From Gemmatimonadales bacterium (GTDB lineage: Bacteria > Gemmatimonadota > Gemmatimonadetes > Gemmatimonadales > GWC2-71-9), in NCBI GenBank assembly GCA_050733215.1, contig JBOHSN010000005.1, forward strand, positions 5,322-69,321: DNA of 64,000 bases, read 5' to 3'. The position numbers were made by a program, and so were the translations under genes. Position 1 is the stretch's first letter. Each line of letters starts with the position of its first letter. The notes below the pieces were generated by a model. It had not been told where the DNA came from. It ran no database searches and saw nothing but the letters and a program-made list of their open reading frames with translations. Positions 4,930-62,137 of this stretch are shown one piece after another.

Positions 4930-5122
4930 GCTATCCGCTATCCGCTTGTTCACGCGGCCCTCCGATGTCCTTGACGTCGGGGGGCCGCGGTGCATCGTCC
5001 CGTGGATAGCGGATAGCGGATAGCGGATAGCGGATAGCGGATAGCGGATAGCGGATAGCGGATAGCGGATAGCGGATAGCGGATAGCGGATAGCGGATAG
5101 CGGATAGCGGATAGCGGATAGC
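4930..5122. repeat. tandem-repeat-armed palindrome A: 2 x GCTATCC, GC hairpin core, 17 x GGATAGC
   Basis: Left arm 4930-4943 (GCTATCC x2). Core 4954-4988 is GCGGCCCTCCGATG..CGTCGGGGGGCCGC, a 14-bp stem with G-U pairs. Right arm 5004-5122 is exactly 17 perfect GGATAGC heptamers (119 nt), ending 16 nt before the leuS ATG. Confidence 0.95.
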
Positions 5123-5137
5123 TGCTACATTTCCGCC

Positions 5138-7657
5138 ATGTCCAGCAGCCCGACTCCCGCCCGCTCCCGCCCGCTCCCGCCCGCTCCCGACCCGGGCGGT
5201 TACGATCCGACCGCCGTCGAAGCGAAATGGCAGGCCCGCTGGGCCGAGCAGCGCACCAACGAGCCCGATCTCGACGGCGCGGCGCGTCCGTTCTTCAACC
5301 TGATGATGTTCCCGTACCCCTCGGCTGAGGGCCTCCACGTCGGGAACATGTTCGCCTTCACCGGCAGCGACGCCTTCGGGCGGTTCCAGCGGCTGCGTGG
5401 TCATGACGTCTTCGAGCCGATCGGCTTCGACGCGTTCGGCATCCACAGCGAGAACTACGCGATCAAGGTCGGCATCAACCCGGCCGAGCTGATCCCGCGC
5501 AACATCGTGAACTTCCGGCGCCAGCTCGTCCGGATCGGCGGAATGTTCGACTGGTCGCACGCGCTCGCCACCACTGACCCCGCGTACTACAAGTGGACCC
5601 AGTGGATCTTCCTCCAGCTGCTGAAGGCGGGGAAGGCGTACCGAAAGGCTGCGGCGGTCAACTGGTGCCCCAGGGACCAGACCGTGCTCGCCAACGAGCA
5701 GGTCATCAACGGACGCTGCGAGCGCTGCGACACGCCGGTCGAGCAGCGGACGCTTGAGCAGTGGTTCTTCCGCATCACCGAGTACGCCGGCCGCCTGCTG
5801 GCCGACCTCGACGATCCGGCCAGGATGGACTGGTCCGACAGCACGGCCACCGCTCAGCGGAACTGGATCGGCCGGTCCGAAGGCGCCGAGATCGAGTTCA
5901 CGGTGGGCGGCGCGGAAGACCAGGCGGACGGCGCCTCCGACGAGCGGCGCATCCGCGTCTTCACCACCCGGCCGGACACGCTGTTCGGCGCCACGTTCAT
6001 GGTGCTCGCGCCCGAGCATCCGCTCCTGCTGGAGATCGTCACGCCCGAGCAACGCGCGGCCGTGCTGGCGTACCGTCAGGCCGCGCAGGCCAAGGACCTG
6101 GTCTCACGCAAGGTCGGCGACCGCGACAAGAGTGGCGTCTTCACCGGCGCGTTCGCGACCAACCCCGCCACCGGCGCGCTCATCCCCGTGTGGACCGCCG
6201 ACTACGTGCTCATGGAGTACGGCACCGGCGCCATCATGGCCGTGCCGGGCCACGACGAGCGCGACTTCGAGTTCGCGCGGAAGCACGGTCTCGAGATCGT
6301 TCGAGTGCTGGCGCCGGAGGGACAGCCGGCCAATGCGCCGCTCGAGGCCGCCGAGACCGAGACCGCCGGGTACCGGATGGTGAATTCGGGTCCGTTCAAC
6401 GGCCGGCCTGCGGATGCGGGCAAGCGCGACATCATCCGCTGGCTGGAGTCGTCAGGCCACGGCAAGGGTGTCGTGCAGTACCGGCTGCACGACTGGTGCA
6501 TCTCCCGCCAGCGGTACTGGGGCCCGCCGATCCCGATCATCTACTGCGAGCGCTGCGGCCCGGTGCCGGTCCCGGAGGAGGACCTGCCCGTACTGCTACC
6601 CGCGATCGACGACTTCCGCCCCGACGACACGGGTGTGTCGCCGCTCGCGCGGGTGAAGGAGTGGTACCACGTTGCCTGCCCGCAATGCGGCGGTCCCGCG
6701 CGCCGGGAGACCGACGTCTCCGACACGTTCCTCGACTCGGCGTGGTACTTCCTGCGCTACCCGAGCACGGACTTCGACGACCGGCCGTTCGATCCCGCGC
6801 GCACCCAGAAGTGGCTGCCGGTGGCCACGTATATCGGCGGCAACGAGCACGCCGTGCTCCACCTGCTCTACTCCCGCTTCATCACGATGGTGCTGCACGA
6901 TCTCGGCCATCTCGACTTCGACGAGCCGTACCGAACGTTTCGCGCGCACGGGCTGATCGTGAAGGACGGCGCGAAGATGTCCAAGTCGCGCGGCAACGTC
7001 GTCGTGCCCGACGACTACATCGCACGCTGGGGGGCCGACGCCTTCCGGATGTACCTGATGTTCCTGGGTCCGTTCCAGGAGGGCGGCGACTTCCGCGACG
7101 ACGGCCTCAACGGCCCGCGGCGGTTCCTCGACAAGCTGTGGGCGCTGGTGGGTCAGAGCCTGCGGGAGGATGCGGCGGGGGGTGAGATCCACCACCCCAT
7201 CCTGGTGAAGTGGCATCAGACCAGGAAGAAGGCGACGCACGACATCGAGCGGCTGAGCTACAACACCGCGATCGCCGCGCAGATGGAGCTGCTCAACACG
7301 ATGCGCGAGGCGAACTGCGCCGAGCGCGCCGTGGTCGAGGACATGGTGCTCATGGTAGCGCCGTTCGCGCCCCACTTCGCCGAGGAGTGCTGGGAGCGGC
7401 TCGGCCACGACGGCTCGATCTTCGACGGCCGCTGGCCCGAGTGGGACGAGGCGCTGACGGTGGAGGACACGGTCGAGATCGCGGTCCAGGTGAACGGCAA
7501 GACGCGGGGCAAGGTGACGGTGCGGCGGGACGCAAGCGAGGACGAGGCGGTGAAGGCGGCCAGCGCGGAACCGTCGATTCGGAAGTTCCTCGACGGGAAG
7601 ACGGTGAAGAAGGTGATCCTGGTTCCCAACCGGCTGCTCAATCTTGTGGTGCAGTGA
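5138..7657 (+). CDS. leuS: leucine--tRNA ligase
   Basis: 839-aa ORF. Motifs: YDPTAVEAKWQARW, HVGNMFAFTGSDAFGRFQRLRGHDV (HIGH-type motif), the editing domain, and GAKMSKSRGNVV (KMSKS). Confidence 0.97.
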   Translation: MSSSPTPARSRPLPPAPDPGGYDPTAVEAKWQARWAEQRTNEPDLDGAARPFFNLMMFPYPSAEGLHVGNMFAFTGSDAFGRFQRLRGHDVFEPIGFDAFGIHSENYAIKVGINPAELIPRNIVNFRRQLVRIGGMFDWSHALATTDPAYYKWTQWIFLQLLKAGKAYRKAAAVNWCPRDQTVLANEQVINGRCERCDTPVEQRTLEQWFFRITEYAGRLLADLDDPARMDWSDSTATAQRNWIGRSEGAEIEFTVGGAEDQADGASDERRIRVFTTRPDTLFGATFMVLAPEHPLLLEIVTPEQRAAVLAYRQAAQAKDLVSRKVGDRDKSGVFTGAFATNPATGALIPVWTADYVLMEYGTGAIMAVPGHDERDFEFARKHGLEIVRVLAPEGQPANAPLEAAETETAGYRMVNSGPFNGRPADAGKRDIIRWLESSGHGKGVVQYRLHDWCISRQRYWGPPIPIIYCERCGPVPVPEEDLPVLLPAIDDFRPDDTGVSPLARVKEWYHVACPQCGGPARRETDVSDTFLDSAWYFLRYPSTDFDDRPFDPARTQKWLPVATYIGGNEHAVLHLLYSRFITMVLHDLGHLDFDEPYRTFRAHGLIVKDGAKMSKSRGNVVVPDDYIARWGADAFRMYLMFLGPFQEGGDFRDDGLNGPRRFLDKLWALVGQSLREDAAGGEIHHPILVKWHQTRKKATHDIERLSYNTAIAAQMELLNTMREANCAERAVVEDMVLMVAPFAPHFAEECWERLGHDGSIFDGRWPEWDEALTVEDTVEIAVQVNGKTRGKVTVRRDASEDEAVKAASAEPSIRKFLDGKTVKKVILVPNRLLNLVVQ
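5151..5190. repeat. C-rich decamer array (CCGCTCCCGC x about 4) inside the leuS N-terminal extension
   Basis: cgactcccgc ccgctcccgc ccgctcccgc ccgctcccga. It encodes ..[15 protein letters not shown].., which lies before the conserved LeuRS core. Confidence 0.9.
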
Positions 7658-7749
7658 GCGGTAAGCGGTGAGCCGGCCAAACAAAGCGGGGGTCCGGTTC
7701 ACGCCGGATCTCCCCGCCTACCGCTCACCGCTCACCGCTTACCGCTCAC
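7654..7749. repeat. tandem-repeat-armed palindrome B: 3 x GTGAGCG, core, 5 x CGCTCAC; spans stop codon to stop codon
   Basis: Left arm 7654-7674 (gtgagcg gtaagcg gtgagcc) contains the leuS TGA (7655-7657). Imperfect GC core GCGGGGGTCCGG..GCCGGATCTCCCCGC. Right arm 7715-7749 (cgcctac cgctcac cgctcac cgcttac cgctcac) contains the stop (7746-7748) of the convergent oxidase gene. Confidence 0.95.
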
Positions 7750-8888
7750 CTCTTCGCCACCACCTCCGACACCGTGAAGAGCGACTGCATCCCCATATCC
7801 AGGTGTGGCGCCACGTGGCAGTGGAACATCCACACGCCCGGGTTGTCCGGCACCATGTCCGCCACCAGCATCTGCATCGCCATCAGGTGCACCATGTCGG
7901 TTCGCATGTGGTGCGCCACGACCGTCTGGCCGTGCCAGTGCGGCGTGTGGATCTCGAAATTCGAGTTGGCGAAGACGTACCAACGTACCCGCTCGCCCTT
8001 CTGCATCGTCAGTCCGGGGGTGTGCCCGAAGCTCAGCCCATTGATCGTCTCCCGCAGGTTGACCAGGTAGGCCGGATCGGCGAAGGTCACGTTCCGCGGC
8101 ACCTTGGCCGAGTCCGCGTAGGTCTTTGCGTTGTGCTCGAAGTACCAGCTCACGTTCTCGTCGAACTCACCGAACAGCGTCACGATCTCCCGGTCCACGT
8201 CTTTGGGCGTGCCGTCCGGACGGCTGCCGCCCTTGGCCGTGATGATCATCGGCCCGACCAGCCCCGCATTGACGTCCTTCCCCTCCTCGACATGCGAATG
8301 GTACATCCAGATGATCGAGCTGCCCTCCCCCGGCGCCGGACCCGCCCGCGCCGGTACCGGCCAGAGGTAGACGTGGGTCCCCCCGGCCGGCACGCCATCG
8401 TCCGCCTTGTCGGCGCCGCTGGTGCCGTCTGCGTACGGCGCACCTTCGGATGACTTCGTGTAGATGACGCCGTGCGGGTGCAGGCTGTAGGGATGGCTCG
8501 CGTTGTTCCGGAACACTACGCGGATGGTGTCGCCCACCTCGGCGCGGAGCAGCGGGCCGAGGATGCCGAGGTGCTCCCAGGCGGCCGGCCTCGGCTTGAC
8601 CGTGCTGAAGCCGCTGTCGGTGTACTCGCGGTAGATGGCCTTCTTGTACACCCGCCCGATCCGGTCCGGTGCGCTCGACGTGAGCACACTCTGGAAGCCC
8701 TCGAACGGGTGGCCGGTGATGGCGTTCGTGCCGCTCGGCGCGTAGTCCCACGCCACTTCCTCAGCGGCGACGTAATAGGTCCTGACGCGGCCGGCGGCGG
8801 GCAGATTCGCGGTGTACCAGCCCGCGATGGCCAGCGCGACGGCGCCGCCGGCGGCCAGGGCGACGAACGGGGCGATCCTGCGTGGCAT
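7746..8888 (-). CDS. multicopper oxidase, two cupredoxin domains, ceruloplasmin-like, N-terminal membrane anchor
   Basis: ORF 7746..8912. Start set at ATG 8888 (MPRRIAPFVALAAGG), with GGAGG upstream. Copper ligand motifs HPHGV, WMYHSHV, HTPHWHG and FHCHVAPHLDMGM (type 1 Cu site HCH..H..M). Confidence 0.85.
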   Translation of the reverse strand: MPRRIAPFVALAAGGAVALAIAGWYTANLPAAGRVRTYYVAAEEVAWDYAPSGTNAITGHPFEGFQSVLTSSAPDRIGRVYKKAIYREYTDSGFSTVKPRPAAWEHLGILGPLLRAEVGDTIRVVFRNNASHPYSLHPHGVIYTKSSEGAPYADGTSGADKADDGVPAGGTHVYLWPVPARAGPAPGEGSSIIWMYHSHVEEGKDVNAGLVGPMIITAKGGSRPDGTPKDVDREIVTLFGEFDENVSWYFEHNAKTYADSAKVPRNVTFADPAYLVNLRETINGLSFGHTPGLTMQKGERVRWYVFANSNFEIHTPHWHGQTVVAHHMRTDMVHLMAMQMLVADMVPDNPGVWMFHCHVAPHLDMGMQSLFTVSEVVAKR

Positions 8889-8929
8889 ATGGACCTCCAA
8901 GGATGCCGCCAAGATACGTCGCGGGGGCC

Positions 8930-9063
8930 GCTATGCGCTATCCGCTATCCGCCCTGGCCGCGGTCATCCCAAAACTGCCGCGACCACCGAGCGACGGCGG
9001 TGCGCGCGAATAGCGGATAGCGGATAGCGGATAGCGGATAGCCGATAGCGGATAGCCGATAGC
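8930..9063. repeat. tandem-repeat-armed palindrome C: 3 x GCTATCC, core, 8 x GGATAGC
   Basis: Left arm 8930-8950 (gctatgc gctatcc gctatcc). 57-nt GC core. Right arm 9008-9063 (gaatagc, ggatagc x4, cgatagc, ggatagc, cgatagc) ends at the stop of the VIT gene (9064-9066). Same heptamer as element A. Confidence 0.95.
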
Positions 9064-10179
9064 TCACAACCACCTAACCATCCATTCCCCGAGCACATAG
9101 CCCACCCCCGCTACGCCCAGCCCGACCACGAACATGTCCATGCCGCTCCGGATCACCCCGCGGCCGGTGAACGCGCTCCGGGCGGCGCCGACCGCGAAGT
9201 GCGACAGCATCGCGAGCGCGAACGCGGTCCAGATCGCCCAGCGTCCGGTGCTCACCAGGAACGGCGCGACCGGGATGAACGCGCCGAGCGCGGTGGCCGT
9301 CCCCGTGACCCACGCCTCGCGCATCGGACTGCCCGGCTCTCCCGCGATACCCAGCTCCTCCCGCGCCTGCTCGGCCAGCGCGCGGTCCGGATCCGACATC
9401 ACCTGCTCGGCGAGCGCGTGCGCCTGCGGCGGCCGGAGCCCCTTCGCCTGGTAGACCAGGCTCAGCTCCTCCCGCTCGAGCTCCGGCATCAGGCGGATCT
9501 CCTCGCGCTCCATGGACAGCTCGTGGTCCAGCACCTCCCGCTCACTCTTCGCCGCCAGGTAGCCCGAGCTTCCCATCGAGAGCGCGTCGGCCACCATCCC
9601 CGCCACGCCTGCTACGAGCACGGCGTGGCTCGCCTCGCCGAAGCCGGCCTGGGCGCCGATCATACCGGCCACGAGTCCGAAATTGGCGGTGAGGCCATCG
9701 TTGAAGCCGTAGACCACATTCCGGAGGATGCCGCCCGCCCCGTGCCGGTGCCATGGCTCGGGGCCCGCGCCGGTGATGGTGGCGAGGCGGTCGGCGTGCT
9801 GCTTCGACTCCCGCGCCAGCTGGAGGGCAGTGGGTCCCGCCGCCCCGTCGGGCTGGTCCCGGTACAGGTCCAGGTAGCCCTTCACCTCCCGACCCTCTTC
9901 CCGGAGCAGGAGCGGCAGGAGGAGCCGCCCCCCGAACCGGCGGGCGACCCAGGCTCGGAACCGGGCCCCGCCCGACGGCACCGGTTCGGGCGCGGAGTGC
10001 CCCTGCTCGGCCAGGAGCGCGCGCCAGGCGGCGACGTGCCGGTCCTCGACCCCCGCGAGCTGCCGGTAGATCTCCCGCCGGCCGGGGTCGGGCTCGACGC
10101 CGGCGAGCTCCCGGTAGAGGAAGGCGGCGTCGGCCTCATCCTGGAGGTGGTGGAGCCAGGCCGCGGGGGCGGGCGTCAT
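9064..10179 (-). CDS. VIT1/CCC1-family Fe/Mn transporter with N-terminal ferritin-like (rubrerythrin-type) domain
   Basis: 371-aa ORF. N-terminal EADAAFLYRELAG..EDRHVAAW, then LRNVVYGFNDGLTANFGLVAGMIGA and C-terminal TM helices typical of the VIT family. Confidence 0.85.
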   Translation of the reverse strand: MTPAPAAWLHHLQDEADAAFLYRELAGVEPDPGRREIYRQLAGVEDRHVAAWRALLAEQGHSAPEPVPSGGARFRAWVARRFGGRLLLPLLLREEGREVKGYLDLYRDQPDGAAGPTALQLARESKQHADRLATITGAGPEPWHRHGAGGILRNVVYGFNDGLTANFGLVAGMIGAQAGFGEASHAVLVAGVAGMVADALSMGSSGYLAAKSEREVLDHELSMEREEIRLMPELEREELSLVYQAKGLRPPQAHALAEQVMSDPDRALAEQAREELGIAGEPGSPMREAWVTGTATALGAFIPVAPFLVSTGRWAIWTAFALAMLSHFAVGAARSAFTGRGVIRSGMDMFVVGLGVAGVGYVLGEWMVRWL

Positions 10180-10191
10180 GCCTCGAAGTAT

Positions 10192-10287
10192 AGAAGAGCA
10201 GAAGAGCGGAAGAGCAGAAGAGCCGCTGGACGGCCCCGTGGAAGCGGTTCCATCCGCTCTTCGGCTCTTCCGCTCTTCTGCTCTTCC
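10192..10287. repeat. tandem-repeat-armed palindrome D: 4 x AGAAGAGC, core, 4 x GCTCTTCN (octamers)
   Basis: Left arm 10192-10223 (agaagagc agaagagc ggaagagc agaagagc). 32-nt core containing GGAAGCGGTTCC. Right arm 10256-10287 (gctcttcg gctcttcc gctcttct gctcttcc). It lies between divergent starts (VIT 10179, ECF sigma 10332). Confidence 0.95.
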
Positions 10288-10331
10288 AGGATTTGCGACT
10301 CTCCGTCCGCCCCCCGCATCTTTAACCCGTC

Positions 10332-10886
10332 ATGACACGTACGCTCTCCATGGACTCGTTTCTGCTCGCCGATGCCCGGAGCGTCGTCGCCCAGGCCAAG
10401 GCGGGCGACCCCGCCGGCTTCGAGGCCCTGTACCGCGCGTTTGAAGCCCCCGTCTACAACCTGTCCCGCCGGATCTGCCGCACCGCGGAGGATGCCGAGG
10501 ACGTGCTCCAGGAGACCTTCCTCGAGGTTTGCCGGAGCATCGGGCAGTACCGGGAGGACGGCAGCCTCTGGGGCTGGGTTCGCACCATCGCCGCGAGCAA
10601 AGCGCTCATGCGGCTCCGCCGAAACAAGTATCGGGATACCGACGAGTTGCACGACGAGGTCGTGGGCCGGGTGCGGGATGATTACCACCTCCGGATGGAC
10701 CTCGAGGCCGCGCTCGAGCGGCTGCCCGAGGTGTCCCGGGCCGTGGTCTGGCTCCATGATGTCGAGGGATATACCCACGAGGAAATCGCCGGCATGATGG
10801 GCAAGACCACGAGCTTCTCCAAGTCCCAGCTCGCCCGGGCGCACGGACGGCTGCGCCGGTGGTTGGGGGAGGAGTCCGTCGCATGA
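10332..10886 (+). CDS. ECF-type RNA polymerase sigma-70 family factor
   Basis: 184-aa ORF. Region 2: AEDAEDVLQETFLEVCRSIGQYREDGSLWGWVRTIAASKALMRLRR. Region 4: VVWLHDVEGYTHEEIAGMMGKTTSFSKSQLARA. The start could instead be ATG 10350. Confidence 0.9.
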   Translation: MTRTLSMDSFLLADARSVVAQAKAGDPAGFEALYRAFEAPVYNLSRRICRTAEDAEDVLQETFLEVCRSIGQYREDGSLWGWVRTIAASKALMRLRRNKYRDTDELHDEVVGRVRDDYHLRMDLEAALERLPEVSRAVVWLHDVEGYTHEEIAGMMGKTTSFSKSQLARAHGRLRRWLGEESVA

Positions 10887-11494: not shown

Positions 11495-11497
11495 GTC

Positions 11498-12361: not shown

Positions 12362-12436
12362 TCCCGCCGTGTGCGCCCGCTCACAGAGGGCGCCGCATGG
12401 GCGATCTATATCTCTGGTCCACCCCCCGGAGGGCTT

Positions 12437-12703: not shown

Positions 12704-12704
12704 A

Positions 12705-12780
12705 GTGTGAGTGCGAGTGTGAGTGACGAGGGGCGCCTGAGTCACCCCTCACACTCACACTCACACTCACACTCACACTC
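12705..12780. repeat. tandem-repeat-armed palindrome E: about 3.5 x GTGTGA, core hairpin, 5 x ACACTC (hexamers); stop to stop
   Basis: gtgtga gtgcga gtgtga gtga (12705-12726). Core cGAGGGGcgcctgagtcaCCCCTC. Then acactc x5 (12751-12780). Flanked by the TGA at 12701-12703 and the convergent stop at 12782-12784. Confidence 0.95.
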
Positions 12781-12781
12781 C

Positions 12782-14520: not shown

Positions 14521-14562
14521 GAACCAAACACGACGCCCCGCCGGAAGGCCGGCGGGGCGTCG
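14521..14562 (-). terminator. intrinsic terminator/attenuator hairpin in the leader of the PDT-DAHPS gene
   Basis: Perfect 14-bp stem CGACGCCCCGCCGG / CCGGCGGGGCGTCG (14531-14544 and 14549-14562) with a 4-nt loop. On the minus-strand RNA it is followed by UGUUUGGUUC. It sits 34 nt upstream of ATG 14497, just 5' of the GGAG ribosome-binding site. Confidence 0.65.
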
Positions 14563-14673: not shown

Positions 14674-14681
14674 CGTTTGAG

Positions 14682-15797: not shown

Positions 15798-15798
15798 T

Positions 15799-15822
15799 GC
15801 GAGTGCGGGTGTGAGTGGGAGT
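15799..15822. repeat. one-armed hexamer array (GCGAGT GCGGGT GTGAGT GGGAGT)
   Basis: Four GNGRGT units directly after the TAA at 15795-15797, between convergent genes. No inverted partner before the yggX stop at 15839. Confidence 0.8.
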
Positions 15823-15838
15823 GGCGCCGTCGCACCGG

Positions 15839-16963: not shown

Positions 16964-17019
16964 GAGTGTGAGTGTGAGTGTCCTCGCACTCGCACTCGCA
17001 CTCGCACTCGCACTCACAG
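16964..17019. repeat. tandem-repeat-armed palindrome G: 3 x GAGTGT, CC, 5 x TCGCAC + TCACAG (hexamers); stop to stop
   Basis: gagtgt x3 (16964-16981), cc, tcgcac x5, tcacag (16984-17019). The arms pair through G-U (GAGTGT with GCACTC). Bounded by the TGA at 16960-16962 and the fabH TAG at 17020-17022. Confidence 0.95.
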
Positions 17020-20320: not shown

Positions 20321-20329
20321 ACAGCCAGC

Positions 20330-20357
20330 GGATAGCCGAGAGCGGATAGCGGATAGC
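20330..20357. repeat. one-armed heptamer array (GGATAGC CGAGAGC GGATAGC GGATAGC)
   Basis: Same GGATAGC unit as elements A and C. It fills the 39-nt spacer between the permease stop (20360) and the amine-oxidase start (20320). No inverted partner. Confidence 0.9.
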
Positions 20358-20359
20358 GT

Positions 20360-21585: not shown

Positions 21586-23013
21586 TCAGCGCGGCGGGGT
21601 GGCGGGGGCGGCTCCCGAGGCGGGCGCGGCCTGCTGACGCATGCCTGGAAGGCCGCCGCCGCCGGTGACCCGGTTCATCCGCTCGCGCATCTCCTGCTGC
21701 GACTGAACCAGGCTCGCGCTCGGCAGCACCAGCACCGAATCTCCGGGCGCGAGCCCGTCGAGCACCTCGGTGTAGTCGAGGTCGGTGAGACCGGTGGTCA
21801 CCCAGACCGGCCGGGGCTCCGCGCTGTCCTTGACGAACACGATGTAGCGGGCGGTCTGGCCGGCCGGGCGGCCGGGCGGGCGGGCGGGCAGTGAGTCTCC
21901 GCTCCGCGCCGGCATCCGCTCGGTCCGCATCTCCCGCGTTGCGACGACCGGGGTATCGCGCCCGCCCGCCCGCCTGCCATCCTGTCCATTGGCCCGCCGG
22001 CCCGCCGGCCCCCCGGACGCCAGCTGCTCCTGCACCGCCCGGGCATCGAGCCCCAGCACCGCTGCCGCCGAGCCCGCGTCACGCTGGGTGCGGAGCGCGG
22101 CGTTCGGCACCGCGAGCACGTCGCGCCGCTCGCCCACATGGATCTCGATGTCGGCGTTCATTCCCGGGCGGAGCCGCCCGCCCTTATTGTCGATGCGGAT
22201 GCGTACGGGAAACGTGGTCACATTCTGGTTGACCACGGCCTGCGGCTCGATCTTGAGCACCGTGCCTTCGAACGGCCGGTTGGGATACGCGTCCACGGTC
22301 ACCGTGGCCTGCTGGCCCTTTGCCACCTTGCCGATGTCGGTCTCGTCCACCTGCGAGGTGACCTGCACCAGCTCGAGGTCGGCCATCTTGAGGAGGGTCG
22401 TGCCGCCGCCGACGTTCTGGGTGGCAGACGCAATCACCGAGCCGCGCTCGACACCCTTCTCGATGATGGTGCCGTCGATGGGCGCGCGGACGTCGGTGTC
22501 CTCCAGCTGGATCCGGGCGTTCTCCAGCGCCACCCTGGCCCGCACGACCGCAGCTTTCGCGTTCGCGTAGCTCAGGAGCACGTTCTCGCGGTCCTGCGCC
22601 GTGATGGCGCCGCTCCGGAACAGCTCTTCGGCGCGGTCCCGCTGCGCCTGGGTCGTGGTCTGCTGCGCGAGGGCCGCCTCGAGATCCGCCTGGGCCTGTG
22701 CAACCGCGTTCCGCAGCTGGCGTGGATCGATGCGAAGCAGCAGAGTTCCCCGCCGCACGGTCTGGCCGGTCTCGACCTTCACCTCCAGTACCTCGCCGGC
22801 GGCCCGGGTCTTCACTTCCACGGTGGTATCGGGCTGCACGGTGCCGCTCGCGTTGGCGGTGACCACGATGTCGCGCGGCCCGACGGCGACGGCCTGCCAG
22901 GGCGGGGGGATCGGCTGCTCCCGGCACCCCAGACCCAGGGCGAGCCAGGCCAGCGCTGCGAAGCGCCCGCTCCCGCCCGCTCCCGCCCTCTCCCGCCCTC
23001 GTCTCCTCCTCAC
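21586..23013 (-). CDS. efflux transporter periplasmic adaptor (HlyD/MacA family) lipoprotein
   Basis: 475-aa ORF. Its GTG start overlaps the ATPase stop (GTGA). Lipobox LALGLGC. Coiled-coil segment [27 protein letters not shown], then beta-barrel domains. Confidence 0.88.
22965..23000. repeat. C-rich decamer array inside the 5' end of the adaptor gene
   Basis: gcccgc tcccgcccgc tcccgccctc tcccgccctc. It encodes the n-region [13 protein letters not shown] of the signal peptide. Confidence 0.85.
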
Positions 23014-23811: not shown

Positions 23812-23962
23812 GCCGCGAATGAACGCGAACAACGCGAATACATCAAATAAAGCCGCGGATCGACGCAGATGAACGCTGATGTTGTTGGCGTCATCCGCGT
23901 TGATCAGCGTTCATCCGCGGCTGGATGTTGTTGATTCGCGTTCATTCGCGTTCATTCGCGGC
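23812..23962. repeat. nested tandem-repeat palindrome H built from CGCGAATGAA-type decamers
   Basis: Outer arms gccgcgaatgaacgcgaacaacgcgaatacatc (23812-23843) and gatgttgttgattcgcgttcattcgcgttcattcgcggc (23924-23962). Inner palindrome agccgcggat[cgacgca]gatgaacgctgat .. atcagcgttcatccgcggct. It shares ttgattcgcgttcattcgcggct with element I. Confidence 0.9.
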
Positions 23963-30991: not shown

Positions 30992-31010
30992 CCCGATCGT
31001 ACTAGGCAGG

Positions 31011-31044
31011 AAAGGCCCGCCGAGAGGCGGGCCTTTCTTTTTTT
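31011..31044 (+). terminator. intrinsic terminator
   Basis: AAAGGCCCGCC gaga GGCGGGCCTTT followed by CTTTTTTT. A perfect 11-bp stem, 20 nt after the TAG at 30989-30991. Confidence 0.85.
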
Positions 31045-31102
31045 GCGCCGGCTTGCGCGCGTCGGGTTCGATCGGTGGAGCGCTGCCGGTGCATCGTGGA
31101 GC

Positions 31103-36905: not shown

Positions 36906-37268
36906 ATGAGAATCGACAACTGTGCGCGCTTCGCGCTCCTGGGGGCCCTGGTGGCCTCGCTGGCGTGTGCGCGCAACACCGAAAATGGGGACGATACCGG
37001 CGCGACCGGCCGCGTGACGACGGCCGATACGGGGGCCACCGTCAGAGTGCGTCCTGATACGACCGTGAGTCCCGATACGGTCGGGCGCGCACACCCCGAC
37101 TCGGCCACCGGCGGGGGAGCGCCAGTGCGCCCCGGCACCGCTGACTCGGCCCAGCCCGGTATCACACCGGTCGACACCGCCATGGCGGACACCTCCGCGG
37201 GCCCGGGGTGGCCGGTCGACACCATGCAGGGTGGTGGCTGGGCGACGCCGCCCGATTCGGGACAGTGA
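36906..37268 (+). CDS. hypothetical lipoprotein, low-complexity (Thr/Asp/Gly/Pro-rich)
   Basis: 120-aa ORF with GAGGAGG upstream. Lipobox LVASLAC. Internal imperfect repeat TGATGRVTTADTGATVRVRPDTTVSPDT. Confidence 0.65.
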   Translation: MRIDNCARFALLGALVASLACARNTENGDDTGATGRVTTADTGATVRVRPDTTVSPDTVGRAHPDSATGGGAPVRPGTADSAQPGITPVDTAMADTSAGPGWPVDTMQGGGWATPPDSGQ

Positions 37269-37269: not shown

Positions 37270-37391
37270 GTGAGCGGTGAGCGGTGAGCGGTGAGCGGTG
37301 AGCAGTAAGCAGTGAGCAGTAAGAAGGGGCTCCCGAGCCGTGTAGCCGGAGCCCCTTCCGCTCACCGTTTACCGCTCACCGCTCACCGCTA
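37270..37391. repeat. tandem-repeat-armed palindrome J: about 7.7 x GTGAGCG, perfect 10-bp core hairpin, about 4.8 x CCGCTCA; stop to stop
   Basis: Left arm 37270-37323 (gtgagcg x4, gtgagca, gtaagca, gtgagca, gtaag). Core AAGGGGCTCC..GGAGCCCCTT (37324-37357). Right arm 37358-37391 contains the TAG (37389-37391) of the convergent acyl-CoA dehydrogenase gene. The left arm begins 2 nt after the TGA at 37266-37268. Same unit as element B. Confidence 0.95.
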
Positions 37392-44771: not shown

Positions 44772-47700
44772 TCACCGCTCGTATGCGAGATTGGGAGCCA
44801 GCCACCGCTCGACGGCCGCCACGTCCATGCCCTTCCGGCGGGCATAATCCTCCACCTGATCCCGTCCGATCTTGCCCACGCCGAAGTAGCGCGCCTCGGG
44901 CCGCCAGAAGTACCACCCGCTCACCGAGGCCGTCGGCAGCATCGCGAAGCTCTCGGTGAGTTTCATGCCTGCCCCATTCTCGGCGCCGAGCAGATCGAAG
45001 AGCGTGCGCTTCTCGGTGTGATCCGGACACGCGGGGTACCCGGGGGCCGGCCGGATGCCCTGGTACGCTTCCTTGATCAGCGCCTCGTTCGCCAGCGACT
45101 CGTCACGCGCGTAGCCCCAGAGCTCGGTGCGCACCCGCTCGTGCAGCCGCTCGGCCAGCGCCTCGGCCAGCCGGTCCGCGAGCGCCTTCGCGAGGATCGC
45201 CGAGTAGTCGTCGTGCGCGGCCTCGTAGCGCGCGACGAGCACGTCCAGCCCGTGACCCGCGGTCACCGCAAAGGCGCCGACGTAGTCGGCGCCGCCGCCG
45301 TCGCGCGGCGCCACGTAGTCGGCGAGCGCGAGATTCGGCCGGCCGGCGCTCTTGGAGAGCTGCTGCCGAAGGGTGTACGCCACCGCGCGCACGTCGCGCC
45401 GGCTCTCGTCGGCGTAGAGCTCGATGTCGTCGCCGACCGCGTTGGCCGGGAAGAAGCCGACCGCGGCGCGGGCCTCGAGGCGCTCTCCCGAGACGATCTC
45501 GTCCAGCATCCGCTCCGCGTCCGCGAACAGGTTCCGCGCCGCCGCGCCGACCGTGGGGTCGTCGAGGATCGCGGGGTACCGGCCCGCGAGCTCCCAGGCC
45601 TGGAAGAACGGCGTCCAGTCGATGTACTGGACCAACTCGGCGAGCGGATACGGCGCAATGGTCCGGACGCCGAGGAAGCAGGGCCGCGGGGCAGGCGTCG
45701 TCGTGTCGACGACCAGCCGGTTGGTCCGTGCCTCTGTGATCGTCGGCCGTTCCCGCCCGCTGTCCCCCGCTGCCGCCCGCTGCTCCCTTATGGTCCGGTA
45801 CTGGTCGCGCACGCCGCGCACGAACTCCTCGTGCTGAGTGTCGCTCAGCAGACTGCTGGCCACTCCCACCGCGCGCGACGCGTCCAGCACGTGCACCGTC
45901 GGGCCGTGGTAGCGCGGCTCGATCTTCACCGCGGTGTGCATCCGCGAGGTCGTGGCGCCCCCGATGAGAAGCGGCACGCGGAACCCCTCGCGCTCGAGCT
46001 CGCCCGCCGTGAACGACATCTCCTCGAGTGAGGGCGTGATGAGCCCGGAGAGCCCGATGATGTCCACCTGCTCCGCGCGCGCCGTCTCGATGATCTTCGC
46101 CGCCGACACCATCACGCCCAGATCGATCACCTGATAGTTGTTGCACTGCAACACGACGCCCACGATGTTCTTGCCGATGTCGTGCACGTCCCCCTTCACG
46201 GTGGCCAGCAGCACTTTGCCCTTGGCGCGGGCGTCGTTCGCCGCCTGCTTCTCCGCCTCGATGTACGGGATCAGGTGCGCGACCGCCTTCTTCATGACGC
46301 GCGCGCTCTTCACCACCTGGGGCAGGAACATCTTCCCCGACCCGAACAGGTCGCCCACGACGTTCATCCCGTCCATGAGCGGCCCCTCGATGACCTGGAT
46401 GGGCCGGTCGAACAGACGCCGGGCTTCCTCGGTGTCCTCGACGATGTAGTCGGCGATGCCCTCGACCAGCGCGTGCGTGAGCCGCTCGCGCACCGGTGCC
46501 TGGCGCCATTCGAGGTGCTCCCGCCCTCTCTCGCCCTCTCCCGCCCTCTCTCGCCCGACGCGCTCGGCAATCTCCAGCAAGCGCTCGGTAGCATCCGCGC
46601 GTCGATTAAGCACCACGTCCTCGACCCGCTCGAGCAGATCGCGGGGAATGTCCTCGTAGATGGTCAGCTGGCCCGCGTTTACGATCCCCATGTCCATGCC
46701 CGCGCGGATCGCGTGGTAGAGAAACACGGAGTGGATTGCCTCGCGCACGACCTCGTTGCCGCGGAACGAGAACGACACGTTGCTCACGCCACCGCTCACC
46801 ATTGCGTGCGGCAGGGTCGCCTTGATCCGCCGCGTGGCCTCGATGTAGTCCACACCATACGCGGCGTGCTCCTCGATACCCGTCGCGATCGCGAAGATGT
46901 TCGGGTCGAGGATGATGTCCTCGGGCGGGAATCCTGCCTGCTCGGTGAGGATCCGGTACGCCCGCGCGGCGATCTCGACCTTGCGGTCGGCGGTGTCGGC
47001 CTGACCCCGCTCGTCGAACGCCATCACCACCGCGGCCGCGCCGTAGCGGCGCACCAGGCGGGCGTGCTCGAGGAACGGCGCCTCGCCCTCCTTCAGGCTG
47101 ATGGAATTGACGACGCACCTGCCTTGAACGCACTTGAGCCCGGCCTCGATCACCGACCACTTGGACGAGTCGATCATCACCGGCACGCGGCTGATATCCG
47201 GCTCCGCGGCGATGAGCCGGAGGAACGTGGTCATCGCGCGCTCGGAGTCGAGCATCCCCTCGTCCATGTTGACGTCGATGATCTGAGCCCCGTTCTCCAC
47301 TTGCTGGCGCGCGACGTCGAGCGCGGCCTCGTAGCTGCCGTCGAGGATCAGCTTGGCGAACTTGCGCGACCCCGTGACGTTGGTGCGCTCGCCGATATTG
47401 ACGAAGTTCGTTTGCGGTCCGATGACGAGCGGCTCGAGGCCCGACAGCCTGAGGCGGACGGGTGGGGTGGCCGGCCGGCGGGCGGGCAGCCCCTTCACCG
47501 CGTCCGCCATTGCCCGAATGTGCTCGGGCGTCGTGCCGCAACATCCACCCACCACATTCACGATGCCCAGCTCCGCGAACTCCCGAATGACCACGGCCAT
47601 CTGCTCGGCGGTCTCGTCGTAGCCCCCGAACGCGTTCGGCAGCCCCGCGTTCGGGTACGCCGTGATGAACACCGGCGCCACGCGCGAGAGCTCCTGCACG

Positions 47701-48504: not shown

Positions 48505-48542
48505 GAAAACGAAAGACCCCGGGGGAGCCAAACGTCCCGGGG
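48505..48542 (-). terminator. terminator-like hairpin plus U-tract immediately upstream of the metH ribosome-binding site
   Basis: Minus-strand RNA: CCCCGGG acguuuggcucc CCCGGGG UCUUUCGUUUUC, then AGGAGcgcccGUG. A 7-bp GC stem. It could terminate yggU transcripts or attenuate metH. Confidence 0.4.
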
Positions 48543-48622
48543 GAGGCGTTTAGCAGGTTGTTTAACGTGGCCGCAAGCTGCCGCAAATCGCCACGGATCG
48601 ATTGTCGGACTCCGCCGGTAAC

Positions 48623-48938: not shown

Positions 48939-49011
48939 AAGCCGCGAATTTGCGCGAATCAACGCGAACACAACCGCTCAATTCGCGTTGATTCGCGTTC
49001 ATTCGCGGCTT
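48939..49011. repeat. tandem-repeat-armed palindrome I: 3 x CGCGAATNNN decamers, loop, 3 x inverted decamers
   Basis: aagccgcgaat ttgcgcgaat caacgcgaac acaaccgctc aattcgcgtt gattcgcgtt cattcgcggctt. Same unit family as element H. It lies between the yggT stop (49035) and the yggU start (48928). Confidence 0.92.
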
Positions 49012-51703: not shown

Positions 51704-53083
51704 CTACACGCCGATCGCAATCCCTACCATCACCGCCACCGCGCCCAGCCCGAACAGCGCAGCCCAGAGCGGGACGACGAAACGGAGCCACCGGTCGAAC
51801 GGCACGCCGGCGGCGGCGAGTATCGCCATCAGGGCGCCGTTGGTGGGCGTGAGGATCTCGCAGAGGCCGGTCCCGTACTGGTAGGCGAGCACGGTCACCT
51901 GTCGCGAGAGCTGGAGCAGGTCGGACAGGGGAACGAGAATCGGGATGGTGAGCACGGCCTGGCCGCTCACGCTGGGTACCGGGATATGGATGAGCGTGTG
52001 CGCCGCCATCATCCCGATCGCCGAGGCGGCCAGCGGCAGGTTCTCGAGCGGGGTAAACAGCGCGTAGACCAGGGAATCGAGGATCCGGCCTTCATCGAGC
52101 GCGATGTAGATGGCCCGGGCGAATCCGACCAGCAGCGCCGCCCCCGCCATCGCCCGGAAGCCCGACACGAACGCCTCGGCGGTGCCCGACCAGCCGAATC
52201 CCGCCACGAGCCCAGCCGCGACGCCCATCACGAAGAAAACCGCCGACAGCTCGTTGAATCCCCAGCCGAGCTGGAGAATCCCGAGCACCAAGAGCCCGAA
52301 GGCGAGGAGCACCATCGCGAGGATGACTCCGTGTTTGGCGGAATCCACGGAGGTCACGGCTGCAGGTGCGGACGCCCCAGCCACCTCCTGGTCCCGCCCT
52401 CTCCCGCCCTCTCCCGCCTGCGTCTTCCTGGCGTAGCGCATCGTCCCCGCCACCCAGATCCCGAGCGCCAGCAGCAGGAACACGTTGCGGAACGTGCCGC
52501 CGGAGAGCGGCGGGAGCTGCGCGAGGTGCTGGGCGATGCCGACCTGAAATAGATTGATCGGACTGAAGGCCGCGCCGACCGCCGCCGCCCCCGCGCTCAT
52601 CGCGACCGCAGTGAGCGGGTCGAAGCCGAGCCGGCGGACCAGGAGCAGAAGCACGGGCACGAACGCGATGATCTCCTCCTGCATGTTGAGCCCGATGCCC
52701 CCGAGCGCGAACGCCCCGCTCGCGATCGGGATCACCAGTGCTTCCCGCCGCGCCAGCCGCGCAACCAGCCAGCCGACAGCGCCGCTCAGCGCTCCGGTCT
52801 GCTCTACGACCGCGAAGGCGCCGCCCACGAGGAACACGAGGAACACCACCGAGGCCGCGTCGGCAAGGCCCTTCGGCACCGCGACAGCGGCCGCGAAGGG
52901 TCCGACCGGCGCCTGCTCGACCTGGTGGAAGGTGCCCGGCACCACGACCGTACGGCCAAGCTCGGGGTCTTCCCGCCGATCGTACCGACCGGCCGGCACG
53001 ACCCAGCTCGCCGCCGAGGCGATGGCGAGACAGGCGAGGAGCAGGACGAGGGGATGAGGCAGCCGCAGACGGGGCGCCGTCAC
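51704..53083 (-). CDS. YfcC-family (DcuC/ArcD-like) anion or amino-acid transporter
   Basis: ORF 51704..53533; start set at GTG 53083, which overlaps the upstream small gene's stop (GTGA). About 12 TM helices. ..FLVGGAFAVVEQTGAL..NMQEEIIAFVP..IHIPVPSVSGQAVLTIPILVPL. Confidence 0.82.
   Translation of the reverse strand: MTAPRLRLPHPLVLLLACLAIASAASWVVPAGRYDRREDPELGRTVVVPGTFHQVEQAPVGPFAAAVAVPKGLADAASVVFLVFLVGGAFAVVEQTGALSGAVGWLVARLARREALVIPIASGAFALGGIGLNMQEEIIAFVPVLLLLVRRLGFDPLTAVAMSAGAAAVGAAFSPINLFQVGIAQHLAQLPPLSGGTFRNVFLLLALGIWVAGTMRYARKTQAGEGGRGRDQEVAGASAPAAVTSVDSAKHGVILAMVLLAFGLLVLGILQLGWGFNELSAVFFVMGVAAGLVAGFGWSGTAEAFVSGFRAMAGAALLVGFARAIYIALDEGRILDSLVYALFTPLENLPLAASAIGMMAAHTLIHIPVPSVSGQAVLTIPILVPLSDLLQLSRQVTVLAYQYGTGLCEILTPTNGALMAILAAAGVPFDRWLRFVVPLWAALFGLGAVAVMVGIAIGV
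52391..52418. repeat. C-rich decamer array (GTCCCGCCCT CTCCCGCCCT CTCCCGCC) inside the YfcC gene
   Basis: It encodes ..TQAGEGGRGRDQEV.. in a predicted central loop. Confidence 0.85.
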
Positions 53084-53355: not shown

Positions 53356-53393
53356 CCGGACGCGGGGGAGGGTGCGTACAGTATCTTCGGACT

Positions 53394-54586: not shown

Positions 54587-54589
54587 CCG

Positions 54590-56757: not shown

Positions 56758-56764
56758 ACCGGCC

Positions 56765-58237: not shown

Positions 58238-58248
58238 GGCGCGATTCC

Positions 58249-60228: not shown

Positions 60229-61058
60229 ACGCCGCCGACGAGGCGGAGTGCAAGCTCCTTTCCGATCTCGTCCAGGAACATTTCGGGCTCTCGTTCTCGG
60301 GCGTGCGCCGCGACATCCTCGCGTCGCGGGTTCGGCCGCGGGTGGCCGCGCTCCGCCTGGGCTCGCTGCTGGACTACTACCACTATCTCCGGTCCCATCC
60401 CCAGCGCGACGGCGAGCTCGATCAGCTCGCCCGCCATCTCACCAACAACGAGAGCTATTTCTTCCGCGAGCCGCATCATTTCGACATCGTGGTTCGGCAC
60501 GTGATTCCGCCGCTCATGCCCGAGCTGCGCCAGCGTCCGCTCCGGGTGCTGTGCGCCGGCTGCTCCTCGGGCGAAGAGCCGTACACGCTCTCGATCGCGC
60601 TGCACGATGCCGGGCTCGAGCTCCGGGGCGTCTCGTGGGAGATCGACGCCTGCGACCTCAACCGCGACCGCCTCGCGCGCGCGCGGGAGGCGTCCTATGA
60701 CGGGGGAGCGCTCCGCGCCTGCAGTGACGAGGCCCTCCGCCGCTGCTTCGAGGAGCGGGACGGCCGCCGCGTGCTCCGCGACCGCTTCCGGAAGGGCGTG
60801 CGGTTCTTCGAGGCCAATCTCGCCACCGCCGCGTCGGTGGGACGGCCGCCGTACGACGTGGTGCTCTGTCGCAACTTGCTGATCTACTTCGATGACGCCG
60901 GCTTCGACCGCACGGTGCGCGTGCTGGCGCGCGCCCTCGCTCCCGACGGCTATCTCCTGCTCGGCCACTCCGAGTCGCTGATTGACCGGAGCGACGAATT
61001 CAGCCCGGTCTGGCTGGAAGGCGCCATGGTCTACCGGAAGCGCGAGGGCCGGGCATGA
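60225..61058 (+). CDS. cheR: chemotaxis protein methyltransferase CheR
   Basis: 277-aa ORF with an ATGA overlap to the HEAT gene. TNNESYFFRE, LRVLCAGCSSGEEPYTLSI, VVLCRNLLIYFDD. Confidence 0.93.
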   Translation: MNAADEAECKLLSDLVQEHFGLSFSGVRRDILASRVRPRVAALRLGSLLDYYHYLRSHPQRDGELDQLARHLTNNESYFFREPHHFDIVVRHVIPPLMPELRQRPLRVLCAGCSSGEEPYTLSIALHDAGLELRGVSWEIDACDLNRDRLARAREASYDGGALRACSDEALRRCFEERDGRRVLRDRFRKGVRFFEANLATAASVGRPPYDVVLCRNLLIYFDDAGFDRTVRVLARALAPDGYLLLGHSESLIDRSDEFSPVWLEGAMVYRKREGRA

Positions 61059-62137
61059 TCAGGGTCTTCGTGGTGGACGATTCGGCCTTTGCACGGCGGG
61101 CGACGAGCAAGGTGCTCGCGGCCGACCCCGGGGTGCAGGTGGTGGGCGAGGCAGCCGGCGGCGCCGAGGCGCTGGCCCGCATTCCCGCCCTGTGTCCCGA
61201 CGTGGTCACGCTCGACCTCGACATGCCGGGCATGAACGGGCTCGCGGTGCTCCGCGCGCTCCTCGCGCGCGATCCCACGCTCCGCGTGGTGATGCTGTCC
61301 GCCCACACGCAGGAGGGCGCCGAGGCCACGCTGGAAGCGCTCGCGGCGGGCGCGGCGGACTTCCTCGACAAGTCGCGCTTCGGGCTGATGGACCTCGAGG
61401 GGTTCGGGCGCGAGCTCCGCGAGCGCGTGAAGGCGCTCGCAGCGGGCAGGCGGGCAGGCGGGCAGGCGGGCCGAGACACTGGGTCCGTGGTTCGCGCGGG
61501 GGCAAGGCGTTCACCCCTGCTCGCCTGCCCGCCTGCCCGCCTGCCCGCCCTGGACCTCTGCGTCCTCGGTGCGTCCACCGGCGGGCCGGCCGCGATCCAG
61601 CTCGTGCTCGAGCAGCTCCCGGCGGACTTCCCCGCGCCGATTGCGATCGTGCAGCATATGCCGCCGGGCTTCACCCGGCCGTTCGCCGTGCGGCTCGACG
61701 CGCACTGCCGGCTCAAGGTCAGCGAGGCGGAGGATGGGAAGCGGCTCGTGCCGGGGCAGGTCGTGATCGCCCCGGCGGGACGTCACCTCACCTTCACGCC
61801 CGGTCTCGGCGTCGTGCTCTCAACCGAGCCCGCCGCGGCCCGGCACATCCCGAGCGTCACCGTGATGATGCTGTCCGCCGCGCGGGTGCGGCCGGGCCGC
61901 GTCCTCGGCGTCCTGCTCACGGGGATGGGCGACGACGGTGCGGACGGGATGGTCGCGATCCGGGCCAGCGGCGGCGTCACGGTCGCGGAGAGCGAGGAGA
62001 GCTGCGTGGTCTACGGCATGCCGCGCGCGGCGGCCGAGCGGGGCGGGGCGGAGCGCCTGTTGCCGATCGGGGCTCTTGCCGAGTGGCTCGCGGCCGTCAG
62101 AGCAGCGTCCCCCGAAGCAGCGCCAGCGCCACGGTGA
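61055..62137 (+). CDS. cheB: chemotaxis response regulator protein-glutamate methylesterase CheB
   Basis: 360-aa ORF with an ATGA overlap to cheR. REC domain VFVVDDS..VTLDLDMPGMNG. Esterase GASTGGP, HMPPGFT, LTGMGDDGADG. Confidence 0.93.
   Translation: MIRVFVVDDSAFARRATSKVLAADPGVQVVGEAAGGAEALARIPALCPDVVTLDLDMPGMNGLAVLRALLARDPTLRVVMLSAHTQEGAEATLEALAAGAADFLDKSRFGLMDLEGFGRELRERVKALAAGRRAGGQAGRDTGSVVRAGARRSPLLACPPARLPALDLCVLGASTGGPAAIQLVLEQLPADFPAPIAIVQHMPPGFTRPFAVRLDAHCRLKVSEAEDGKRLVPGQVVIAPAGRHLTFTPGLGVVLSTEPAAARHIPSVTVMMLSAARVRPGRVLGVLLTGMGDDGADGMVAIRASGGVTVAESEESCVVYGMPRAAAERGGAERLLPIGALAEWLAAVRAASPEAAPAPR
61441..61549. repeat. tandem-repeat-armed palindrome inside the cheB linker: 4 x GGCGGGCA, 45-nt core, 4 x TGCCCGCC (octamers)
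   Basis: Left arm agcgggca ggcgggca ggcgggca ggcgggcc (61441-61472). Right arm tgctcgcc tgcccgcc tgcccgcc tgcccgcc (61518-61549). 32-nt arms with about 3 mismatches. Translated in frame as AAGRRAGGQAGRDTGSVVRAGARRSPLLACPPARLPALD. Confidence 0.95.

Follow-up and report, generated by a model that had tools for sequence, protein, structure and literature searches.

Why should spacer after spacer in one stretch of a bacterial genome be filled with short tandem repeats that face their own reverse complement? The question is raised by 64,000 nt of DNA (hereafter the window; assembly GCA_050733215.1, contig JBOHSN010000005.1, positions 5,322 to 69,321 of the forward strand) from a soil-type bacterium of the order Gemmatimonadales whose genome is a metagenome-assembled genome (MAG). 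The window has 70% G+C, and its leucyl-tRNA synthetase (LeuRS; leuS 5138-7657) finds its closest matches in Gemmatimonadales MAGs; a CheB sequence identical to that of the window carries the label "Gemmatimonadales bacterium". At nine intergenic loci, and at 61442-61549, n copies of a 6-10 nt unit are followed by a unique G+C-rich core and then by m copies of the reverse complement of that unit. The data presented below suggest that these elements are probably hairpin-anchored inverted microsatellites, a mutational structure rather than a dedicated device.

Inverted arrays surround G+C-rich cores throughout the window

Arrays were located by Tandem Repeats Finder plus direct reading of the sequence, and the gene map was drawn from third-position G+C and verified by Pfam and homolog searches. 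In addition, a scripted scan was employed for an array of period 5-14 lying no more than 150 nt from an array of its reverse complement, with 100 dinucleotide-preserving shuffles of the window as background. The scan returned 9 pairs in the window, compared to a shuffle mean of 0.16 and a maximum of 2. An earlier reading of the letters alone (the sequence-only reading) had listed this array-core-inverted-array layout at nine loci, and both Tandem Repeats Finder and direct reading bear it out at each of them. That reading took the series to run through intergenic DNA as far as 61549; the layout is indeed present there, but 61442-61549 lies within the linker of cheB and is not intergenic. The copies in the window are as follows.

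4930-5122: in the spacer separating the TonB-receptor stop (4916) from the leuS start (5138); (GCTATCC)x2.4 at 4930-4946 as left arm, a core hairpin at about 4954-4988, and a perfect (GGATAGC)x17 at 5004-5122 as right arm; folding energy -96 kcal/mol (+ strand)
7654-7750: bridges the convergent leuS stop (7655-7657) and Cu-oxidase stop (7746-7748); arms of GTGAGCG/GTAAGCG units, core hairpin GCGGGGGTCCGG..CCGGATCTCCCCGC at about 7686-7717; z -9.9
8928-9063: in the spacer separating the VIT1 stop (9064, - strand) from the Cu-oxidase start; (GCTATCC)x3.6 in one arm and (GGATAGC)x8.3 in the other, core of 53 nt
10192-10287: divergent spacer between the VIT1 start (10179, - strand) and the extracytoplasmic function (ECF) sigma factor start (10332, + strand), no adjacent stop codon; arms (AGAAGAGC)x4 and (GCTCTTCN)x4.4; z -12.7
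12704-12780: bridges the convergent stops of Transgly_assoc (12703) and the pheA-aroG fusion (12782); arms of hexamers, GTGTGA/GTGCGA x4.3 on one side and (CTCACA)x5.5 on the other
15798-15838: degenerate hexamer array (TGCGAG TGCGGG TGTGAG TGGGAG) filling the convergent DUF3187/Iron_traffic spacer; inverted arm partial
16964-17019: bridges the convergent stops of a 146-aa open reading frame (ORF) (16962) and FabH (17020); arms (GAGTGT)x3 and (CTCGCA)x5.5, core nearly nil
20327-20358: single (AGCGGAT)x4.6 array without an inverted partner, in the 39-nt spacer of two - strand genes
21847-22016: inverted arrays (GCGG/GGGC)n ... (CGCC/GCCC)n of period 4, inside the HlyD-family gene 21586-23013 (- strand); in frame, in a low-complexity insert at aa about 332-392; -112 kcal/mol over 181 nt
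23812-23962: between two - strand genes; nested, with outer CGCGAATGAA-type decamer arms around an inner palindrome of related decamers; z -11.5
37270-37391: bridges the convergent stops of a 120-aa ORF (37268) and acyl-CoA dehydrogenase (37389); about 8 copies of GTGAGCG/GTAAGCA in one arm and 4.7 of CCGCTCA in the other, core hairpin AAGGGGCTCC..GGAGCCCCTT; z -14.8
48939-49011: decamer type, between the YGGT stop (49035, - strand) and the DUF167 start (48928, - strand); T-rich tails on both strands
61442-61549: intragenic, 108 nt in frame in the cheB linker; arms (GCGGGCAG)x3.8 and (CCTGCCCG)x4.2; -93 kcal/mol

When both strands were folded, each of the ten elements (the nine intergenic loci and the cheB copy) formed a single long hairpin on either strand, with energies of about -26 to -96 kcal/mol and z-scores of -2.9 to -15 (at or below -4.4 in 19 of 20 folds), and these elements supply the majority of the 25 longest inverted repeats of the window. 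Of 5 single-direction contexts, 4 had the more stable hairpin on the transcribed strand, a non-significant excess.

Across the window copies the unit period ranges from 4 to 10, and the units run head to tail and contiguously, with as many as 17 perfect copies in a row. The units are of at least five unrelated kinds (GGATAGC, GTGAGCG, GTGTGA, AGAAGAGC, the CGCGAATGAA type and GCGGGCAG), several of which recur at distant loci: GGATAGC at 4930, 8928 and, as the single array, 20327; GTGAGCG at 7654 and 37270; the GTGTGA type at 12704 and 16964, with degenerate arrays also at 15798 and 29311; and the CGCGAAT decamer at 23812 and 48939. Loci with a common unit have unrelated cores, while the two decamer elements have the termini GCCGCGAAT...ATTCGCGGC in common. 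The arms of an element are frequently unequal in copy number (2.4 and 17 at 4930, 3.6 and 8.3 at 8928, 3 and 5.5 at 16964, about 8 and 4.7 at 37270), and both this inequality and the recurrence of units are as the sequence-only reading had described them. Together with the perfect 17-copy array, the unequal arms point to recent slippage. Variant units are also mirrored from one arm to the other, as is the case for GTAAGCG at 7654 and GGAAGAGC at 10192.

Orthologous spacers keep the layout while units and periods change

To follow the same spacers in other genomes, LeuRS homologs of 88-90% identity were used to reach the syntenic loci in three NCBI MAGs (L082, L083 and L084) and one JGI contig (L085), and a Logan contig (L243) contributed one further spacer, that between Transgly_assoc and pheA. 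At three of the spacers, the units were as follows.

leuS/Cu-oxidase: GCGGTRA in the window; GCTATCA/GTCATCA in L082; GCTATGA in L083; GCGGTRA in L084; a plain hairpin in L085
Transgly_assoc/pheA: 6-mer GAGTGT in the window; 7-mer GAGTCAC x7.7 in L082; 7-mer of GAGTGTC type (GTGYCGA) in L084 and L243; a plain hairpin in L083 and L085
VIT1/sigma: 8-mer AGAAGAGC in the window; 8-mer AGAGGAGC in L082; 8-mer of AGATGGGC type in L083 and L084; no array in L085 (74-nt spacer)

The DUF3187/Iron_traffic spacer, degenerate in the window, holds full GCAGTGA/GCGGTGA inverted arrays in L083 and L084, and the spacer between the 146-aa ORF and FabH holds GGGAGR 5/10-mers in L084 and two TCGACAC units in L083, while in L085 the two stops abut. 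In the relatives the layout is thus kept at orthologous spacers whereas the unit, and even the period, turns over fast, and copy-number differences between species are large. Heptamers account for about 16 of the roughly 27 paired elements in the window and its relatives; further copies of the CGCGAAT decamer family were sought in the relatives and none were found.

The cores have a history of their own. Those upstream of leuS (compared in L082 and L085) and between leuS and the Cu-oxidase gene are conserved across genomes whose arrays differ, and they are conserved also in L085, where the arrays are absent or decayed, indicating that at these two spacers the hairpin is older than the arrays. 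The statement in the sequence-only reading that every spacer is built in the same way therefore holds for the layout but understates the cores, around which, at these two loci, the arrays have grown. L085 carries plain hairpins at three spacers that hold arrays elsewhere. Between the Cu-oxidase and VIT1 genes, the window and L082 share the same unit, but the 42-nt core is inverted: it is identical at 40 of 42 positions in reverse complement and at only 26 of 50 in direct alignment.

The clearest mirroring was found at L082 9817-9974, where GTCAT (T) and GCTAT (C) units stand in the order T C T T C T in both arms (9817-9863 and 9926-9974). The same variant order (GTCAT, GCTAT, GTCAT, GTCAT, GCTAT, GTCAT) is found at the non-orthologous L082 3613-3660, with every unit differing at one position between the two loci.

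These comparisons bear on the idea of a small mobile or REP-like palindromic family, perhaps moved in trans, whose insertion sites would be at or close to terminators and whose ends would be the arrays. The occurrence of one unit at several non-orthologous loci, the genome-specific choice of favourite units, the identical variant order at the two L082 loci and the common termini of the decamer elements would all fit such a family. However, the cores of two spacers are local hairpins with orthologs in other genomes, and they are conserved where the arrays beside them differ; loci with the same unit have unrelated cores; the period shifts within one orthologous spacer; arbitrary control heptamers give the same layout (see below); and neither a single consensus nor a target-site duplication was seen, the flanks having been inspected by eye. 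Pfam scans of 27 of the roughly 50 window ORFs returned no transposase-family domain, although no search directed at RAYT proteins was made. Given these results, we consider a mobile family quite improbable.

Gene context and the terminator question

The sequence-only reading proposed that the elements are register-tolerant "zipper" hairpins acting as terminators or 3'-end stabilisers, and the position of the elements relative to genes is in part what such a role would predict. Four convergent gene pairs are bridged from stop codon to stop codon (7654, 12704, 16964 and 37270), as had been claimed, with the stops in or next to the terminal units, and the genes concerned are real, being backed by Pfam and, in the case of ORF 36906-37268, by homologs. 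Eight of the nine listed intergenic elements abut a stop, the exception being 10192. The copies between same-strand genes (4930, 8928, 23812 and 48939) take up the spacer except for the last 10-40 nt before the next start, and tandem-context copies end 10-15 nt upstream of the next start codon, including that of the essential leuS, which leaves no room for a promoter. On our rough gene map, intergenic copies make up about a third of the true non-coding DNA.

Most units adjoining stop codons themselves contain a stop triplet. Since a heptamer array places such a triplet in all three frames, a frame read into the array is closed immediately, whichever it is; the triplets may reflect selection for three-frame stops or may be incidental to A/T content.

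Two copies lie in frame within genes. That in cheB separates the receiver (aa 4-107) from the methylesterase (aa 170-344) domain; its hairpin is kept in frame in a second species (L087 10387-10495), and in other relatives this linker is hypervariable. A further copy, 10192-10287, lies between divergent start codons. Beside it, at 10288-10331, five genomes (the window and L082-L085) share a conserved motif, GATTTGCGAC...GCATCTTTA, located upstream of the ECF sigma gene; it is probably the promoter of that gene, with the array element inserted right next to it.

If the arrays were adaptive, they could act as slippage-tolerant, bidirectional terminators that need no U tract, or as 3'-end stabilisers, with selection keeping the layout. 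Several observations are consistent with this. Every convergent spacer of positive length in the window holds arrays (four full and one degenerate), running from stop codon to stop codon; canonical terminators of hairpin plus T run are scarce in the window and do not exceed the shuffle expectation; orthologous spacers keep the layout despite unit turnover; the hairpins are very stable on both strands; and 48939-49011 has T-rich tails on both strands. As in intrinsic terminators, a G+C-rich stem-loop stands directly downstream of the gene, but a U-rich tract 3' of the stem is absent except in the decamer elements (48939 and parts of 23812), the only ones with T-rich tails. Moreover, two copies are in frame within genes, one stands between divergent start codons, and a strong terminator 10-15 nt before a start codon would silence the downstream gene, leuS included. 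Three of these spacers hold plain hairpins in L085, and the canonical terminator at 31008-31045 implies that the organism is able to use ordinary ones. A strong terminator role cannot be general, since it conflicts with the coding, divergent and near-start copies and with the plain hairpins of L085, and we regard selection for termination as an unlikely explanation of the arrays. The composite hairpin would probably retain what the core does, namely 3'-end protection or partial termination.

A proposed origin by slippage and template switching

We therefore return to the reading of the elements as inverted microsatellites anchored on a hairpin. In the model that we propose, the starting point would be an ordinary G+C-rich 3' hairpin behind a gene. 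A few bases at the foot of its stem would become duplicated, and replication slippage would then expand and contract the resulting array, mostly in a 7-nt register. Template switching by DNA polymerase between the arms could copy one arm onto the other, giving mirror-image arrays, and would occasionally flip the core, while array growth would continue until sequence under selection is met. The RNA hairpin that results is predicted to be very stable and tolerant of register shifts, and would most likely keep the role of the core hairpin, for which 3'-end protection and partial, U-tract-independent termination or attenuation are the candidates.

Previous work has documented that template switching between the arms of inverted repeats homogenises the arms, expands them and inverts the spacer (PMC8604942, PMC13100816, PMC7202029). 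Such switching would account for the mirrored variants, the concerted change of unit and period in both arms and the inversion of the core. Likewise, a limit set on growth by selection on coding sequence would explain why arrays run exactly to stop codons and why the intragenic copies are confined to tolerant low-complexity segments, namely the cheB linker and the HlyD-family insert. The copies in these two genes and in the divergent promoter spacer also imply that the process is independent of terminator position. The sequence-only reading had suggested slippage or hairpin-primed template switching as the source of the elements, a suggestion well supported by the turnover of unit and period, the perfect arrays, the unequal arms, the mirrored variants and the core inversion.

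Several observations nevertheless weigh against this model. Slippage alone leaves unexplained why non-orthologous loci of one genome have favourite units in common, and local slippage does not explain the shared higher-order variant order of L082 3613 and 9817; together these hint at exchange between arrays or at a trans-acting bias. The persistence of the layout at the same spacers in four species could reflect selection rather than a mutational hotspot, the presence of arrays in every positive-length convergent spacer of the window looks functional, and the substitutions that separate the cheB hairpin of the window from that of L087 are not clearly compensatory.

The favourite units and the shared variant order leave room for a bolder proposal, that of an active repeat amplification specific to the lineage. 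In one Gemmatimonadales genus it would continually remake the majority of 3' spacers and some protein linkers, and it would pass units between distant loci, possibly under a trans-acting determinant (a variant of a polymerase or of a repair protein, for example, or a structure-specific nuclease). The hairpins would then be slippage-tuned, U-tract-free terminators or 3' stabilisers, and the elements a repeat class of their own, not incidental microsatellites. We consider this proposal, taken as a whole, distinctly doubtful.

Distribution beyond the close relatives

The strict scan gave a lineage-specific density: per 100 kb, the window has 9.4 elements and four loci from three close relatives have about 14, compared to none in L085, L086 and 209 kb of other Gemmatimonadota. 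In other phyla, 2 elements were found in 1161 kb (Parcubacteria, L018 6447-6555; Anaerolineae, L057 9879-9946). The best GTDB representatives by LeuRS, which are 59-72% identical, have no arrays and are usable only as negative controls.

When metagenomes were scanned for (GGATAGC)4, at least 120 contigs were returned, their G+C lying between 0.37 and 0.72. An inverted partner within 200 nt was present in 20 of 34 of these at G+C of at least 0.63 and in 0 of 8 low-GC contigs, while shuffled control units had one in 0-3 of 58. The cores and neighbouring genes of the metagenome contigs are unrelated to one another. In one contig (L140, tig-clpP-clpP), which one named match indicates to be probably planctomycetal, the layout stands directly after the stop codon. 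In IMG/VR, two arbitrary control heptamers were as frequent, as x3 arrays, as the window units, which rules out GGATAGC as a special cross-phylum unit. A perfect array-core-inverted-array of the control unit GTAGACG was found after a stop codon in a viral contig, and the IMG/VR examples include L222 9821-9926, where the layout lies directly after a stop codon. The units of the copies in viral contigs and outside Gemmatimonadota are unrelated. The finding of the layout with arbitrary heptamers implies that the layout is generic and the unit arbitrary, and that what is special here is the density.

Could the elements be artefacts of assembly or sequencing? Arrays of this kind do disrupt short-read assembly. 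Window positions 5020-10657 are 100% identical to the NCBI contig CCZQVG010000053.1 (L001), with no copy-number difference there, and that contig starts inside the GGATAGC array of 4930-5122, where a short-read assembly probably broke. Similarly, the end of L242 and 11 of 80 loci among L088-L167 lie within a few bases of heptamer arrays. These breaks, and the fact that the copy number of the 17-unit array rests on one assembly, are what an artefact would have in its favour. Against it, three elements are identical in the separate NCBI contig, the layout is found in MAGs and metagenomes of unrelated projects, and in cheB the copy preserves the reading frame and recurs, conserved, in a second species. 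An artefact is almost certainly not the explanation. The breaks do mean that elements of this type are under-counted in MAG-based genomics.

Relation to known repeat systems

The sequence-only reading stated that this class had not been described. That claim does not stand, given both the occurrence of the layout in other phyla and viral contigs and the report of Rehm et al. 2015 (PMC4692102) on Xanthomonas, in which GGGAATC arrays form 70-75 inverted pairs per genome that are able to form stem-loops. Those pairs are strongly biased towards stop codons, which they overlap or approach to within about 50 bp; their type (single or paired) is conserved between species while their lengths are not; and they were read as G-quadruplex motifs (PMC4692102). 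As in Xanthomonas, the arrays described here are paired in opposite orientation within one intergenic region, near or overlapping stops. However, Xanthomonas has one family of G-rich units per genome, of the G-quadruplex-capable GGGAATC/GGGANTN kind, whereas here that kind is lacking and at least five unrelated units of period 4-10 are present, most of them unable to form G-quadruplexes. The core hairpins, unit turnover, core inversion and coding copies seen here are not described for Xanthomonas. The layout is thus known but barely studied, having been briefly reported for one unit in that genus, and the novelty here lies in how dense the elements are (about 1 per 6 kb), in the number of different units, in the replacement of units at orthologous sites and in the presence of copies in protein linkers. 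A literature search produced no account of the layout in Gemmatimonadota, and none of a form with several units anchored on a core.

It is also conceivable that the arrays serve as binding sites for a protein or a structure-specific factor, in the manner of iterons, nucleoid-protein sites, a CsrA-like GGA sponge or G-quadruplexes. Periodic repeats resemble such arrays, GGAUAGC contains a GGA motif, and the Xanthomonas arrays were interpreted as G-quadruplex-forming (PMC4692102). However, a genome with at least five unrelated units, which change at orthologous sites and in the majority cannot form a G-quadruplex, has as its constant feature the complementarity of the arms and no motif. Binding-site arrays are therefore a very improbable explanation.

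The elements share features with several further systems. The long simple sequence repeats (SSRs) of prokaryotes surveyed by Mrazek et al. 2007, as that work is represented in PMC4679880 and PMC4692102, have units of 5-11 nt with an excess of heptanucleotides, an excess summarised in PMC4679880 together with its explanation by polymerase slippage. As in long SSRs, heptamers dominate here, the arrays are intergenic and head to tail with high identity, and copy numbers differ between arms and orthologs; those surveys, again as so represented, take arrays singly, and inverted pairing around a hairpin lies outside their description. Cyanobacterial STRR heptamers and the TAACTGA repeats of Beggiatoaceae (PMC4679880) are likewise intergenic tandem heptamers of lineage-specific abundance, but they are mostly direct arrays, often upstream of starts, with one inverted case reported in Beggiatoa (PMC4679880).

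REP/BIME elements are abundant intergenic hairpins at 3' ends and between cistrons, often in inverted pairs, with mRNA 3'-end protection and termination as proposed roles. REPs are built on a single conserved consensus of ~35 nt, headed by GTAG/CGTC, and have a link to RAYT transposases (PMC3733652); the present elements have no such consensus, their cores are locus-specific and their arms are tandem repeats. Intrinsic terminators, including bidirectional ones, are similar in having a G+C-rich stem-loop straight after stops, symmetric between convergent genes, but the present elements mostly do not have a U tract, have stems of 20-60 bp, far longer than needed, and are in some cases intragenic or upstream of starts. 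Homogenisation and expansion of arms and inversion of the spacer are known from quasipalindrome template switching (the Ripley model; PMC7202029, PMC8604942, PMC13100816), whose events are known as point-like or small, whereas here they would be tied to slippage of microsatellites and take place repeatedly, at many loci of one genome.

MITEs (miniature inverted-repeat transposable elements) were rejected, the cores at two spacers being orthologous local hairpins and no flanking duplication being seen by eye, as was CRISPR, which has direct repeats of 24-48 nt and unique spacers of similar length where the present units are 4-10 nt and contiguous. The dismissal of CRISPR and MITEs in the sequence-only reading therefore holds; that reading had also set aside a REP/BIME-like family, and units and cores do differ between loci. 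At gathering score, the sole Rfam match in the window was a SAM_alpha riboswitch at 48531-48604, the array elements being unmatched, and a tRNA search of the window found none.

The elements link the unexplained excess of heptanucleotide repeats in some bacteria with template switching at hairpins, in a concrete and datable system. The five related genomes appear to show successive stages, from plain hairpin to single array to mirrored arrays to flipped core, and the mirrored arrays are able to invade protein linkers in frame. If it is true that the arrays tune termination or mRNA stability, they would represent a new kind of rapidly mutable 3' regulatory element.

Other repeats and RNA features of the window

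While investigating the arrays, we also noted repeats of other types. In the N-terminal extension of leuS, a C-rich decamer (CCCGCTCCCG) is present in four copies at 5148-5194 and is conserved as a DNA repeat in four genomes (L082 10010-10054, L083 10013-10052 and L084 10018-10050 in the relatives); its complementary strand is rich in G3 tracts and could in principle form a G-quadruplex. Decamer repeats of this C-rich type are also found in frame in two interdomain linkers of MetH (46518-46556 and 45756-45787; aa 647-659 and 903-913), and similar ones at 22964-22998, the N-terminus of the HlyD-family gene, and at 52392-52418.

The SAM_alpha riboswitch (RF00521, 49 bits; - strand) lies upstream of metH and has a terminator-like hairpin at 48529-48515. 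This Rfam family was described for Alphaproteobacteria, while the present genome belongs to Gemmatimonadales. Directly upstream of the pheA-aroG start, at 14531-14562 (- strand), a 14-bp G+C-rich hairpin followed by a T-rich tail resembles an attenuator. Lastly, a 12-mer repeated 4.5 times at 36611-36664 encodes (ALPA)n in the N-terminal region of the D-Ala-D-Ala carboxypeptidase (Peptidase_S13) gene.

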